Of a DNA stretch of 64,000 bases, positions 1-55,321 are shown piece after piece. Under the pieces are notes generated by a model that had not been told where the DNA came from, did not search any database, and was given only the letters and a program-made list of their open reading frames with translations. Source of the DNA: Escherichia phage moha; sequence record MN850590.1, one strand, 5' to 3'. A program made the position numbers and the translations under genes. Position 1 is the stretch's first letter, and every line of letters starts with the position of its first letter.

Positions 1-2
1 TA

Positions 3-449
3 GAAGCAAATAATTGTGTATTTGATGCTAATGTTATTGGTGATAATACTGCGGAAGGTTATGTTCTGAAGCCTTGTTTCCCTAAATGGCTGCCAAACGG
101 TACTCGTGTAGCTATTAAGTGCAAGAACTCTAAATTCAGTGAAAAGAAAAAGTCTGATAAGCCTATTAAAACTCAGGTTCCATTAACCGAAATTGACAAA
201 AACTTGCTTGATGTTCTAGCTTGTTATGTTACATTAAATCGTGTTAATAATGTTATTTCTAAGATTGGGGATGTAACGCCAAAAGATTTTGGCAAAGTGA
301 TGGGATTGACTGTTCAAGATATTCTGGAAGAAACTTCTCGTGAAGGTATTGTATTAACATCATCTGATAATCCGAATCTTGTTAAGAAAGAATTAGTCCG
401 AATGGTGCAAGATGTTCTGCGTCCTGCATGGATTGAATTAGTATCATAA
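3..449 (+). CDS. rnlB: RNA ligase 2-like protein, C-terminal part (5' end lies outside the window)
   Basis: Open frame runs from the window edge to the stop at 449; convergent with gene 24 and separated from it by a bidirectional hairpin terminator; the position matches T4 gene 24.1/rnlB. Identity assigned from memory and synteny. Confidence 0.5.
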
Positions 450-451
450 CG

Positions 452-479
452 AAAAAGGGGACCTTACGGTCCCTTTTTT
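452..479. terminator. bidirectional rho-independent terminator between rnlB and gene 24
   Basis: aaaaa-GGGGACC-ttac-GGTCCC-tttttt; A-run upstream and T-run downstream allow termination on both strands. Confidence 0.75.
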
Positions 480-1761
480 ATTCATCAATGATAATTTTTG
501 GTAGCTTAACACCTAATAAAACAGACAAGTCTGAACGTCCTGCCATTTTATCCATGTCCCCACCATCAATTATTCTCGCTTCTTTTTCATCTTTTGCTAC
601 TGTGTAAGGATTTGCTGATAAAGCATATCTAACCAATAATCCGATAGACGGTTGCAAGCTTTCTGGATCAACTACAACTTTAAATGCACCAACATGTTCC
701 GGGTCATCTAAATCTACTCCTTCAGTGTATGGAGCATAAAAGATGGACCCTACAATTTCTTTTTCGCCGATATTTTCTACAACACCCACAATAACATAAT
801 CTAATGGACTGTTGGTATCGCAGTAAAGAGGTAATCCATTTGCCAAGAATCCATAAGCATTTTGTGAAAGATACTTGTCATCTTCTGGCTTATGTTTTAA
901 CCAACCGGAAGCAGCAAGAATAGCAGCTGCACGAGCTGAGGCCACACAAAACGTTGCAGTATAAGTTGTCTCTTTTTGAATGTGTGATACCATTTCACAC
1001 ACCATTCGATATAACGAACGACCTGCTTCTGGAGCGGATGCATAGCTCAAGTCAATAAATCCGGTGTCAGTAATTCCTGTAACTTTATAACGTTTCGATA
1101 CAGTAATTAAAGACTGAAGAATATCTTTATTAATTTCATCAGCCATTTCAGTAGCAAGTAAATCTTCTAAGAAGTTAGGGGCATCAAATCCATTCGCTTC
1201 CAAATCTTGCGCTAATTCAACCGTGAGGCCAGTTTTAAGTTTACGAGATTTGACTGAAGTTTGCCATTTATTAATCTGGAATCTTGCATCAGAAATTTCG
1301 CTATCAGAGCTTTCAAATTTGCTTGTTACCGCTGCATCTGAAAATAACCGTACCTTTAAATGAACGACTGCAATCTGAAGAGCTAATTCTAGATCACTTT
1401 CTTGAATATCTGCAAATGGTGTATCTTCTAACACTTTATAGACGATATTATTATATTTGAAAAAATCACCTTTATTTAGTGTGACTTTTGATTCTTCTGT
1501 GAGTTCAGTAATTTTTTCTCGGTCTACATATCCAACTTCGCCAGCATAAGTAGCACCAGTTTTAAATGTAAATTCATTATCTGGGTTAAGATATTTGATA
1601 CCATAAAAAGCAGCAACAGGTTGATTAGTTCTTTGTGTTGCTACAATGTCAGAATATACTAATTTAGTCGTAGCGCGAGTCAAAGCAACGAGATTTGGGC
1701 GACCAATTGAGTTGCTAGTAGACGTTGTAGATTCACGCAATAATTTTTGGATTTTACTCAT
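478..1761 (-). CDS. 24: capsid vertex protein gp24
   Basis: 427-aa ORF, same length as T4 gp24; lies immediately downstream of gene 23 in T4 order. Confidence 0.93.
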   Translation of the reverse strand: MSKIQKLLRESTTSTSNSIGRPNLVALTRATTKLVYSDIVATQRTNQPVAAFYGIKYLNPDNEFTFKTGATYAGEVGYVDREKITELTEESKVTLNKGDFFKYNNIVYKVLEDTPFADIQESDLELALQIAVVHLKVRLFSDAAVTSKFESSDSEISDARFQINKWQTSVKSRKLKTGLTVELAQDLEANGFDAPNFLEDLLATEMADEINKDILQSLITVSKRYKVTGITDTGFIDLSYASAPEAGRSLYRMVCEMVSHIQKETTYTATFCVASARAAAILAASGWLKHKPEDDKYLSQNAYGFLANGLPLYCDTNSPLDYVIVGVVENIGEKEIVGSIFYAPYTEGVDLDDPEHVGAFKVVVDPESLQPSIGLLVRYALSANPYTVAKDEKEARIIDGGDMDKMAGRSDLSVLLGVKLPKIIIDE

Positions 1762-1788: not shown

Positions 1789-1796
1789 TATTTATA
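1789..1796 (-). promoter_or_regulatory. T4-type late promoter (TATAAATA) for gene 24
   Basis: Plus strand reads TATTTATA, 28 nt upstream of the gene 24 start codon. Confidence 0.6.
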
Positions 1797-1802
1797 AAGA
1801 TT

Positions 1803-1831
1803 GTTTACAACGTATTTGGTATGTGATACTA
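1803..1831 (+). promoter_or_regulatory. early-type sigma70 promoter
   Basis: GTTTAC at 1803-1808, 17-bp spacer, TG-a-TACTAT; followed by the conserved leader TAGACTTATCAACTACAGAGGAG and an ATG at 1863. Confidence 0.6.
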
Positions 1832-1862
1832 TAGACTTATCAACTACAGAGGAGTAAACAAA

Positions 1863-2132
1863 ATGACTAAAGCACGTTTCTTACGAGATACTTTAAAAGT
1901 TCTGGAAGCTGAAGCAGTTAAGTTAGTAGAAAAATATGGTGCAAAAGTTAATGGTAATGCCTTCAACAAAGTATGGATGAAAGTTGATTCTGAAGCTCGA
2001 GCTAAAGGTTATTGGGCCACTGATAAACTTGCATCATTCAAAAACAAAGATGGTTCTCCGGCATATGTCCAAGAAGGTATGCCTAATTGGCAAAATATTT
2101 TGAAAACTTACATCGAAATTGCACAGAAATAA
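1863..2132 (+). CDS. hypothetical early protein (89 aa), oriented against the late capsid genes
   Basis: ORF with GGAG Shine-Dalgarno and its own early-type promoter, sitting between genes 24 and 23. Confidence 0.6.
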   Translation: MTKARFLRDTLKVLEAEAVKLVEKYGAKVNGNAFNKVWMKVDSEARAKGYWATDKLASFKNKDGSPAYVQEGMPNWQNILKTYIEIAQK

Positions 2133-2160
2133 AACCAAAAATGGGAGACCGAAGTCTCCC
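2131..2160 (-). terminator. rho-independent terminator downstream of gene 23
   Basis: GGGAGAC-cgaa-GTCTCCC hairpin; on the minus strand it is followed by a U-rich tract (ATTTTTGGTTTT). Confidence 0.7.
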
Positions 2161-2184: not shown

Positions 2185-3753
2185 TTAGATGCCTTTTACA
2201 TATACACGGCGGAAGTAAGCGTTCTTACCAAGGCTGTTCAGGATAGATGGCATACCGGACTGGATGCGAGCACCTGGAGCCTGCAGGGAACTTTCAGCAA
2301 ACGGGTTAACACCGATACCGTAACGAGTTTTAAAGCCCATTACCGGCTGGAAGTTCTTAGGATCGGAACCACGCAGCGGGGTAAGTGCAACGTAAGGAGC
2401 ATAGTAAATACCTGCATCCATTTCGTTAGCGCCTTTGTAACCAACGGTGAAGTAATCCTGTTTAGCATACTGGTCGATGTATACGCGGTATTTACCACCA
2501 AGTACACCGGCAAATACAGACTTAGTAGTGTCGGTATTAAAACCAGAAGCCAGGCCCTGTGCAGCGTAAGAAATACCAGTATCAACTGAAGCCAGTACGT
2601 TAACTACGTTACGGGAAGCGATAATGAAGTTACCTTCACCACGACCGGTTTGACGAGCAATTTCAACTGCTTCTTTATCAATCTGGAACAACAGAGATTT
2701 AAAGCTTTCACCGGCCCAACGAGCACCACGGATATCAATCGGGTCCTGGAAGTCAAATACACCAGCTTTAGAACCCGGAGTCAGGGTCATACCAGATTTA
2801 CCAACCTGTGCTGAGTAGTTAATCCAATCAACAACTTCACGGTTGATTTCTAGCATAATTTCTGTAGCCAGAATACCGCTCAGTTCAGCATCAGCATCCA
2901 TACCGTGTACTGCACGGAGGTCTTGTGCTAATTCGATAGAGTAAGCAGCTTTCAGCTGGCGAGATTTAGCTTCGATAACTTGTTTATCGATACGGAAGCC
3001 CATTTCATTCCATGGGTTATCGGTAGAACCGTTGAAACCTTCCTGGAGTTCAGCGATAGAAGTAGCCATACCTTCAGCGATTTCTACCAGTGCACCAGCT
3101 TCCATTTGTTTCTTAACTTCTGCATCTAATTTAGCTGCATCAGTTGCACCAGAATCAAGTGTTACGACAGCAGAAGCTTGCAGATATACAGTACCAGTTT
3201 CTTGGAAGAAGTGAGTATAGATATCACCTACAACAGTAGTAGTGTCAGCAGCCAGAGCTGGGAATTTCTTAGCAGCACCCTGACCAGAGAACATCGCGTC
3301 TGGGGCATACATCGGATGGAAAGCTTCTTTAGCGCCAGCAGCGATAGGGTCTTTACCATATACTGCACGGAGAGCAAATACCTGACCGGTCGGGCTGTTC
3401 ATAGGCTGAACACCACAAATATCAAAAGCGATCAGATTAGGAATAGCACGACGAACCATACCCATAACTGCCGGCCCAATTTGGGTTACTGCACCAGAGG
3501 TTTGACCTGCTGCGATGTTCTGAGCATTATAACCATGGTCACCACCAATTTCAGCTTCGGTCAAGAAAGAACCAAATGCCTGAGCGATTTTCTCGTCTTT
3601 ATATTCAGGGGATACTTCGAAATCTTTTTCCTGGTTTTCGAAGATTTTAGCGATAATAGCCTGCTTGCTATTAGCGATTTCCGGCAGGCCTTCACCTTCC
3701 AGCAGTTCTTTCCATTTGTCTACGAGCTGAGCTTTAGTTTTGATAGTAGTCAT
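2185..3753 (-). CDS. 23: major capsid protein gp23
   Basis: 522-aa ORF; the translation is recognisable as T4 gp23 and the length matches (T4 521 aa). Confidence 0.97.
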   Translation of the reverse strand: MTTIKTKAQLVDKWKELLEGEGLPEIANSKQAIIAKIFENQEKDFEVSPEYKDEKIAQAFGSFLTEAEIGGDHGYNAQNIAAGQTSGAVTQIGPAVMGMVRRAIPNLIAFDICGVQPMNSPTGQVFALRAVYGKDPIAAGAKEAFHPMYAPDAMFSGQGAAKKFPALAADTTTVVGDIYTHFFQETGTVYLQASAVVTLDSGATDAAKLDAEVKKQMEAGALVEIAEGMATSIAELQEGFNGSTDNPWNEMGFRIDKQVIEAKSRQLKAAYSIELAQDLRAVHGMDADAELSGILATEIMLEINREVVDWINYSAQVGKSGMTLTPGSKAGVFDFQDPIDIRGARWAGESFKSLLFQIDKEAVEIARQTGRGEGNFIIASRNVVNVLASVDTGISYAAQGLASGFNTDTTKSVFAGVLGGKYRVYIDQYAKQDYFTVGYKGANEMDAGIYYAPYVALTPLRGSDPKNFQPVMGFKTRYGIGVNPFAESSLQAPGARIQSGMPSILNSLGKNAYFRRVYVKGI

Positions 3754-36116: not shown

Positions 36117-36191
36117 GGCCCTGTAGCTCAATGGGAGAGCTGTCAGCTCATAACTGATAGGTAGCTGGATCGAAACCAGCCAGGGTCACCA
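36117..36191 (+). tRNA. tRNA with CAT anticodon (Met, or Ile2 if C34 is lysidinylated)
   Basis: Manual fold: acceptor GGCCCTG/CAGGGTC, D-stem GCTC/GAGC, anticodon stem GTCAG/CTGAT with loop CT-CAT-AA, T-stem GCTGG/CCAGC, discriminator A and encoded CCA. Confidence 0.8.
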
Positions 36192-36194
36192 ATC

Positions 36195-36271
<77 letters not shown>

Positions 36272-37549: not shown

Positions 37550-37578
37550 GTTTACTTCTTCTAAGGACATGATACTAT
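37550..37578 (+). promoter_or_regulatory. early-type promoter
   Basis: GTTTAC, spacer, TG-a-TACTAT, then the TAGACTTATCAA leader and AGAGGA Shine-Dalgarno. Confidence 0.6.
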
Positions 37579-37606
37579 AGACTTATCAACCATAGAGGAA
37601 AATGTT

Positions 37607-38110: not shown

Positions 38111-38169
38111 TGTACAAACGCCAAGGATGGTGGTACTATAGACTTATCAACTACAGAGGAGTAAACAAA

Positions 38170-38334
38170 ATGACTACTTTAATTATTTGGTTCGATGAAA
38201 ATGAAGAAACATACTGTGTGAATATTGGTGAAAGTCCAATGCCTGAATTTGAATCCTCGGATAAAAACTCTGTTGTATCTTGGGCTGAAGGTTATAAAGC
38301 AGCTAAAGGTGACGTTGAAATAATTTACATCTAA
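38170..38334 (+). CDS. hypothetical small protein (54 aa)
   Basis: ATG after CAGAGGAGTAAACAAA, the same leader as at 1840-1862. Confidence 0.5.
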   Translation: MTTLIIWFDENEETYCVNIGESPMPEFESSDKNSVVSWAEGYKAAKGDVEIIYI

Positions 38335-48958: not shown

Positions 48959-49009
48959 GTTTACTTCTCCTCTAGTTGTGTTACTATAGACCTGTCAACT
49001 AGAGGAGAA
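48959..49009 (+). promoter_or_regulatory. early-type promoter with a 14-bp Shine-Dalgarno-sequestering inverted repeat, upstream of regB
   Basis: GTTTAC, left arm TTCTCCTCTAGTTG (48965-48978), TG-t-TACTAT -10, right arm CAACTAGAGGAGAA (48996-49009). Confidence 0.65.
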
Positions 49010-49015
49010 ATCAAA

Positions 49016-55238: not shown

Positions 55239-55263
55239 GGGGTTAAAATATTTAAAAAAGTAG

Positions 55264-55290
55264 TGTACATGCTTTTAGGATATGATACTA
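55264..55290 (+). promoter_or_regulatory. early-type promoter (-35 variant TGTACA, TG-a-TACTAT)
   Basis: Followed by the TAGACCTATCAAAACAAGAGGAG leader. Confidence 0.5.
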
Positions 55291-55321
55291 TAGACCTATC
55301 AAAACAAGAGGAGAAAACAAA

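Follow-up and report, generated by a model that had tools for sequence, protein, structure and literature searches.

Why does a gene with an early-type promoter lie, on the opposite strand, between two capsid genes of a T4-like phage? The question is raised by a stretch of 64,000 nucleotides from Escherichia phage moha (MN850590.1), hereafter the window, in which an 89-aa open reading frame, that we named ORF89, separates gene 24 from gene 23. A preliminary description of this DNA had presented the ORF as an early-promoter-driven gene inserted antisense to its neighbours, at a junction that could be a hotspot for such insertions.

The Locus and Its Flanking Genes

The sequence here matches T4-like coliphages of the Mosigvirus type (100% identity to p000y and vB_Eco_mar005P1, 99.5% to PhAPEC2), and the identities of genes 24 and 23 were taken from the annotated PhAPEC2 (table 1). 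From position 478 to ~30745, all large ORFs are encoded by the minus strand, except for antisense overlaps of longer minus-strand ORFs, and ORF89 is the sole plus-strand gene identified within this late block. Genes 22 and 21 follow gene 23 in the local layout. The gp24 of the window is 95% identical to that of T4 and ~70% identical to those of the Dhakavirus and Gaprivervirus loci. The gp24 gene is single in the window and in T4, unlike in L002, L003, L014, and L067 (Gaprivervirus, Dhakavirus, and two metagenomic relatives), where two tandem gp24 paralogues lie upstream of the junction.

Table 1. Features of the Gene 24/Gene 23 Junction and Its Surroundings in the Window
Feature	Position	Strand	Basis or remark
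rnlB, 3′ end	1-449	+	
Gene 24 (capsid vertex protein), left flank of the junction	478-1761	-	ORF; gp24 annotation in PhAPEC2 (99.5% identical)
Gene 24 late promoter box TATAAATA (TATTTATA on the plus strand), left cassette boundary	1789-1796	-	Read from the sequence; kept in nearly all junctions, whether empty or occupied
Cassette, 333 nt (early promoter, leader, and ORF)	1800-2132	+	Joined-flank query and alignments; absent from T2-type junctions
-35 element GTTTACA of the T4-type early (sigma-70) promoter	1803-1809	+	Fits the T4/PST PeSL consensus
Extended -10 element TG-A-TACTAT	1824-1832	+	Promoter scan; TG ahead of the second hexamer
Repeated -10/leader/Shine-Dalgarno/start element	1827-1869	+	43 nt, 100% identical to 38134-38176
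Shine-Dalgarno AGAGGAG	1848-1854	+	8 nt before the ATG; AGAGGA invariant in the leader-copy alignment
ORF89, 89 aa (ATG start, TAA stop), PHROG 6003, homologous to RB69ORF188c	1863-2132	+	ORF list; profile match
Gene 23 intrinsic terminator, right cassette boundary	2131-2160	-	8-bp stem with UUCG loop (2143-2160); U tract (2131-2142)
Gene 23 (major capsid protein), right flank	2185-3753	-	ORF; gp23 annotation in PhAPEC2

We did not see a foreign base composition in the cassette. Its GC content is 34.2%, compared with 36.5% for gene 24 and 38.0% for the window, and the GC3 of ORF89 is 23.3%, compared with 22.4% for gene 24. Gene 23 is more GC-rich than all of these (45.8%, GC3 36.5%), probably because the codons of this late gene, the most highly expressed one, are optimised.

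ORF89 Carries the Standard Early Promoter and Leader of the Genome

The hexamers TTTACA (1804-1809) and TACTAT (1827-1832) are separated by 17 nt, with a TG upstream of the second, and transcription is predicted to start near ~1839. All the elements of a T4-type early promoter are thus present: GTTTACA, a 17-nt spacer, TG-A-TACTAT, and an A/T-rich upstream region. This A/T-rich stretch coincides with the late promoter box of gene 24. We counted a strict form of the T4-early pattern, GTTTAC-N15-19-TAnnnTAnA, in the whole window and obtained eight matches compared with 0.43 expected by chance. All eight are on the plus strand. Seven lie between 37 and 59 kb, in the early region; the remaining one, alone in the late block, is the ORF89 promoter. 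Two tRNA genes of the plus strand, tRNA-Met (CAT) and tRNA-Arg (TCT), occupy 36117-36271, and the first early-type promoter match (37550) follows ~1.3 kb downstream.

The similarity extends beyond the promoter. The 43 nt repeated at 38 kb begin at the -10 box, include the leader and Shine-Dalgarno sequence, and end with the second codon, related copies are found at 37573, 48982, and 55286, and the core -10/leader/Shine-Dalgarno motif has five matches in the window compared with zero expected. The leader and Shine-Dalgarno sequence of ORF89 are the standard early design of this genome. The preliminary description had ascribed to ORF89 the same promoter and leader architecture as the early genes; given this identity, the related copies, and the motif counts, the statement is literally true. 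Near-identical promoter/leader/Shine-Dalgarno/start elements form a family in the window (38130-38176, 37550-37606, 48959-49015, and 55263-55320). The element at 38134-38176 drives an ORF of ~54 aa, and this second match to the ORF89 leader element is likewise found in most Mosigvirus records.

The sequence thus confirms an early-promoter-driven 89-aa ORF that is antisense to both capsid genes. The term "early" is taken here from the sequence of the promoter; our literature search found no T4 or Mosigvirus transcriptome covering segD or ORF89. In T4-like genomes, early transcription proceeds on the strand opposite to the late genes. The eight early promoters of the window all share one direction, which is the reverse of that of the late genes, so that the antisense orientation of ORF89 is not special.

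A perfect 8-bp inverted repeat (1801-1808 and 1854-1861, TTGTTTAC and GTAAACAA) pairs the -35 box with the spacer between the Shine-Dalgarno sequence and the ATG. Its -35 arm lies outside the RNA, so that any role would be at the DNA level, and the repeat may be due to chance. Folding of the promoter region (1762-1870) revealed no stem-loop, only weak A/T-rich pairing.

The Cassette Is an Insertion at a Junction with Several States of Occupancy

Compared with T2-type phages, the cassette is a precise addition, with the late promoter box of gene 24 on its left and the terminator hairpin of gene 23 on its right. To define it, 350 nt of the gene 24 flank were joined to 350 nt of the terminator and gene 23 flank, and this query was searched in the phage collection. 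It aligns as a single 693-nt piece, with ~84% identity, to T2, RB3, and ~500 other Tequatrovirus records. Conversely, in all 11 Mosigvirus records sampled, the match spans 1033 nt, that is, the 700-nt query plus 333 nt. Only one half of the query is matched in T4, T6, and ECML-134, as expected for a segD-sized insert. The ORF89 cassette is an insertion relative to most relatives of the phage, as the preliminary description had it.

We then surveyed 46 junctions, consisting of 45 T4-like loci from IMG/VR and that of T4. The IMG/VR set holds zero Mosigvirus loci, and the occupancy of the Mosigvirus junction rests on the 11 sampled records. Five states are distinguishable. The junction is empty in 32 of the 46 loci, with 76-124 nt that contain the gene 24 ribosome site, the gene 23 terminator hairpin, and, mostly, a TATAAATA-type late promoter box. 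An ORF89 family member is present alone in seven loci and together with a segD-like gene in two (L040 and L062). A segD-like gene alone occupies four, T4 included, and a 500-aa homing endonuclease the last one (L045 5141-6643, antisense; PHROG 3339, E = 7.5e-131). All cargo of the occupied junctions lies antisense to genes 23 and 24; in each of them, a TTTACA-N17-TAnnAT motif adjoins the late promoter box, and the cargo ends just ahead of the hairpin. The gap that receives it, from the late promoter box to the terminator hairpin, is roughly 80 nt long. Together with the replacement of one allele by another within cassette-sized limits (see below), these five states bear out the view of the junction as an insertion hotspot.

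Since empty junctions are seen in the most distant relatives, whose gp24 is only ~30% identical, the empty state is probably ancestral. One of the IMG/VR junctions, L039, is 102 nt long and empty, with a TTGTTTTACA remnant of a -35 box beside the late promoter. At the right end, this junction is identical to that of L026, a relative with segD. Given this remnant and this match, L039 looks like the scar of a cassette lost by deletion.

Promoter and ORF Are Exchanged as a Unit

Gaprivervirus (VR20) and Dhakavirus (QL01) have homologues of ORF89 at this junction too, with the orientation unchanged, which answers the question of conservation that the preliminary description had left to be checked. 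The alleles are only 31-38% identical between genera, compared with ~86% for the adjacent C-terminus of gp23. Intermediate alleles, with 61-71% identity, are carried by metagenomic T4-like contigs, and the two longer of these contigs (61% and 70%) show the same junction.

One of these metagenomic loci is a recombinant. L067 (2860-3360 of a 173-kb T4-like contig) combines Dhakavirus-type flanks with a Mosigvirus-type allele of ORF89. Its flanks are 92-94% (gp24 N-terminus) and 92-93% (gp23 C-terminus) identical to those of QL01 and L040, and its ORF89 product is 27% identical to the Dhakavirus alleles and 61% identical to that of the window. In the alignment with QL01, identity stops at the late promoter box and resumes at AAACAAGAATGGGAGACC, in the terminator. 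These breakpoints show that the promoter and the ORF move together, with crossovers at two conserved regulatory motifs. The ORF89 cassette has been exchanged as a unit.

The family is not restricted to T4-like phages. Two distant relatives, P0021 and P0022 (34-35% identity, E = 1e-9 to 1e-13), are encoded by two non-T4 phage contigs, L016 (3900-4290) and L017 (3890-4290). Each has its own sigma-70 promoter (TTGAAT/TTGACG...TATTAT/TATATT) and a flanking hairpin. L017 is related to 42-kb Serratia siphoviruses. In L016, the gene belongs to a block of small same-strand genes, and trace similarity was found only to 84-kb Erwinia phages.

ORF89 Encodes a Conserved Small Basic Protein

ORF89 matches PHROG 6003, a family of unknown function, over its full length (E = 2.1e-45, residues 1-89 on profile positions 1-90 of 90), as do all 16 aligned family members. 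The exact protein is present on 262 contigs. Its PhAPEC2 copy, of the same sequence, is annotated as "hypothetical protein, similar to RB69ORF188c", and all public records of the protein read "hypothetical protein". The gene is already annotated, as hypothetical, in more than 200 genomes. RB69ORF188c is not mentioned in any paper that we found.

Among the Dhakavirus alleles, those unsaturated at synonymous sites (dS 0.14-0.69), dN/dS ranges from 0.05 to 0.13. An AlphaFold model built from the 16-sequence alignment has a pLDDT of 93.5 and a pTM of 0.79 and predicts a helix (3-25), a second helix (31-48), a beta-hairpin (52-70), and a third helix (76-88). An invariant G-N...N motif falls in the loop joining the first two helices. 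The protein is basic, with a pI of 9.6, and 15 of the 16 family members have a pI of 9.2-9.9. ORF89 is thus a real gene under purifying selection. Phages mogra and 310Ecol104PP carry split or truncated copies of it, which indicates that it is dispensable.

Searches for known relatives returned little. No Pfam family was found for ORF89 or any of the 16 relatives, and the PDB sequence search gave no match. Comparison of the model with PDB and BFVD by Foldseek retrieved nothing except one family member. The match to Pfam DUF4859 (E = 0.0029, in two of the 16 members) is weaker than the family cut-off and was attributed to chance. A profile search of 1.8 billion representative proteins gave nine clusters only, two of them repeat-inflated false positives. 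These two, P0024 and P0025, were rejected as relatives because their scores are the sum of five to six short repeats and reach significance only through this addition. P0024 (655 aa, metagenomic) is a six-fold cytochrome-b5-domain repeat protein and P0025 a eukaryotic Ig-repeat protein. P0024 has a motif of ~20 residues in common with residues 51-69 of ORF89, W-T-x-E-K-L-A-x-Y-N-G-K-N-x-Q-P-A-Y.

The Gene 23 Terminator and Possible Antisense Transcription

On the minus strand, the hairpin has a UUCG loop and is followed by AUUUUUGGUUUU, and the terminator scan reports the site on this strand only. We therefore assign it to gene 23. The same or a similar hairpin is found in the empty 23/24 junctions. 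The preliminary description had ORF89 overlapping this terminator, which is overstated: the stop codon (2130-2132) meets only the first 2 nt of the U tract and the stem starts 11 nt past the end of the ORF, so that the contact is real and the ORF abuts the terminator.

On the plus strand, the hairpin (-13.5 kcal/mol) is followed by AAAAUAAGAUUU. The ORF89 transcript would thus contain one part of an intrinsic terminator, the GC-rich hairpin, and not the other, the U tract. The stem-loops of PeSL cassettes have been reported as effective terminators (Arbiol et al. 2010, PMC2839356). As the U tract is missing on this strand, antisense read-through from the cassette into gene 23 is plausible. The Dhakavirus hairpin likewise has no U tract on the strand of the ORF89 homologue; that of Gaprivervirus has T runs on both sides.

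Such read-through might be the main purpose of the cassette. Polymerase or antisense RNA passing through the 3′ part of gene 23 could silence leaky early expression of the capsid gene or shape the 3′ end of its mRNA, and the ORF would be secondary. The hairpins of the window phage and of Dhakavirus would permit this, and all types of cargo in the slot are antisense. However, the protein is under strong purifying selection and has a confident predicted fold, 32 of the 46 junctions have no promoter there at all, and the T runs flanking the Gaprivervirus hairpin would block read-through. Moreover, the family members of non-T4 phages are not antisense to capsid genes, and in T4 the early promoters have normally ceased to act by the time of gene 23 transcription. 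We found nothing useful in the literature on "anti-late" RNA. A cis-antisense regulator is, on these grounds, very unlikely.

segD and Other Endonuclease Genes in the Same Slot

The preliminary description had stated that T4 carries a different insert at this junction. This insert is segD, in the same orientation as ORF89. It has been described as unique among the endonuclease genes of T4 in being antisense to the genes beside it, and a segD-specific promoter could not be found (Edgell et al. 2010, PMC2988022). At the position homologous to the ORF89 promoter, we identified TTTACA, a 17-nt spacer, and TATTAT, with a TG upstream. In T4 (L004, NC_000866; 4740-4800, minus strand of the locus), this motif is back to back with the gene 24 late promoter. 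An early-type promoter occurs at the same place in the four other segD-like junctions inspected (4/4). TTTACA-N17-TATTAT is thus a plausible candidate for the early promoter of T4 segD.

In L040 (5162-6118) and L062 (5030-5974), an ORF89 homologue and a segD-like GIY-YIG gene lie in tandem within one 23/24 gap. The ATG of the segD-like gene is 4 nt past the stop codon of the ORF89 homologue and it has no promoter of its own, forming one transcription unit. In both loci, the endonuclease gene appears to have been inserted into an existing ORF89-type cassette.

These arrangements invite the idea that ORF89 itself belongs to homing-endonuclease biology, as a remnant DNA-binding domain, as an immunity or helper factor for SegD-like enzymes, or as the target into which they home. 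It would account for the presence of segD-like genes and of another homing endonuclease in the same slot, and for the promoter common to both genes in L040 and L062. The protein evidence is against it: ORF89 has no match to nuclease or HTH families, no GIY-YIG, HNH, or other nuclease domain was found with Pfam in the 16 family members, and the hhalign profile comparison with T4 SegD, by which we looked for a relationship between the two, gave a probability of 1.4%. So is the distribution. Seven of the nine ORF89-bearing junctions of the survey have no endonuclease, the 333-nt insert of the sampled Mosigvirus records is too small for one, and the relatives in other phage types have none adjacent. 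Judged by these profile and motif searches, ORF89 is not a homing endonuclease, and a role in homing is highly improbable.

A Possible Role for the Protein

The position of ORF89 between genes 23 and 24 could also mean that it is a head-related protein, internal or decorating, placed among the head genes for functional reasons. Two family members do have weak matches to a PHROG "internal virion protein" (best E = 0.0015; E = 0.09 for the window protein), which are below any sensible threshold. Against this reading, the ORF89 promoter is of the early and not of the late type, and the gene is on the opposite strand. The gene is also absent from most T4-like phages despite near-identical gp23 and gp24, and elsewhere it is found among small early-type genes or after tail genes. 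We therefore give this reading only a slim chance. That ORF89 is a chance ORF in an AT-rich spacer, as its shortness, its unknown function, and its invariable annotation as hypothetical might suggest, has a negligible probability and is effectively refuted by the comparative data, with the low dN/dS, the maintenance of the family at 23-70% identity in three T-even genera and two unrelated phage types, the confident AlphaFold model, and the canonical Shine-Dalgarno sequence and promoter.

The dispensability of ORF89, its rapid divergence, its patchy distribution, and its spread across phage types fit a host or defence factor better than a capsid function. We infer that the protein is unrelated to capsid assembly, and there is about an even chance that it is directed at the host or host defences. 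With a confident fold that has no known analogue, a basic charge, dispensability, and occurrence in several types of Enterobacterales phages, the family would be reasonable to include in screens for factors of early host takeover or anti-defence.

A Probable Early Accessory Cassette within the Head-Gene Block

Taken together, the stretch from ~1800 to 2132 is probably a self-contained early accessory-gene cassette, similar to the PeSL+ORFan cassettes and comparable with morons. By its sequence class, the T4-early-type sigma-70 promoter would be used by the host RNA polymerase, still unmodified, during the first minutes after infection and, with the standard leader, would drive the synthesis of a small, basic, soluble protein of 89 aa. 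Gain, loss, and exchange of the cassette would take place at the late promoter box and the terminator hairpin, through homologous recombination between co-infecting phages. Its orientation follows the early-strand rule of T4-like genomes, and its transcript would be ended or attenuated at the hairpin, or soon after by Rho, in antisense gene 23. Endonuclease cargo uses the same slot, orientation, and promoter type.

A broader and more tentative proposal, which we regard as possible rather than probable, is that the 23/24 gap is a dedicated landing pad of T-even phages, in which the late promoter box and the terminator hairpin serve as recombination linkers for cargo with a standard early promoter, and that ORF89 is a host- or defence-directed early effector with a new fold, moved between T-even phages and at least two unrelated types of Enterobacterales phages. 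If the landing pad exists, T4 segD should be transcribed early from its homologous TTTACA-N17-TATTAT promoter.

The locus is a clean natural example of modular cassette exchange within the most conserved block of the T4 genome. Two regulatory motifs mark the limits of the cassette, and the empty junction, either cargo, both cargoes in tandem, and a deletion scar can all be compared. The same comparison yields a plausible early promoter for T4 segD.

Comparison with PeSL Cassettes, Morons, and segD

PeSL+ORFan cassettes have been described in T4-like phages (Arbiol et al. 2010, PMC2839356; Comeau et al. 2014, PMC4122927). The ORF89 promoter fits their T4/PST consensus, TTTACW-N17-TAYWAT (Comeau et al. 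2014, PMC4122927), with an A/T-rich upstream region and a conserved Shine-Dalgarno sequence and ATG. As in these cassettes, several near-identical copies of the promoter and leader occur per genome, the cargo is a small ORFan, and a GC-rich stem-loop forms a boundary. Insertion, deletion, and replacement between relatives are seen in the 46 junctions, in the L067 swap, and in the empty T2-type junction. Unlike in PeSLs, there is no stem-loop in or beside the promoter element. The stem-loop of the locus is the terminator of the neighbouring gene 23, at the 3′ end of the ORF, and would adjoin the promoter only in a circularised cassette. A further feature of PeSL cassettes is the formation of mini-circles through recombination between flanking elements. 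As a single promoter copy flanks ORF89, excision between two PeSLs is impossible as drawn; the apparent recombination points are instead the late promoter box and the terminator. ORF89 also lies within a conserved head-gene block and not in a hyperplastic region. The cassette thus works like a PeSL or moron cassette but, with no stem-loop in its promoter element, is not a strict PeSL.

The lambdoid morons (Juhala, Hendrix and colleagues, as discussed in PMC2839356) are likewise single accessory genes with their own promoter, located between genes that are adjacent in related phages. Transcription independent of the surrounding late operon is a further likeness predicted for ORF89. It differs from morons in that its base composition is not distinct from that of the genome, and it may differ in its terminator: the hairpin after ORF89 lacks a U tract on the plus strand, and the Gaprivervirus homologue has T runs on both sides of its own. 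Moreover, the phage is strictly lytic, which leaves no place for expression from a prophage, and the cassette is exchanged at conserved boundary motifs and not by illegitimate recombination.

The closest parallel in position is T4 segD, which has the slot, the antisense orientation, and the type and position of the promoter in common with ORF89 and whose 3′ end also lies just before the gene 23 hairpin. The two proteins are unrelated, with 223 aa for SegD compared with 89 aa for ORF89, which carries no nuclease motifs. From the RB69ORF188c-like hypothetical proteins of PHROG 6003, matched over their full length, ORF89 shows no difference. It is an ordinary swappable accessory cassette and not a new kind of system.
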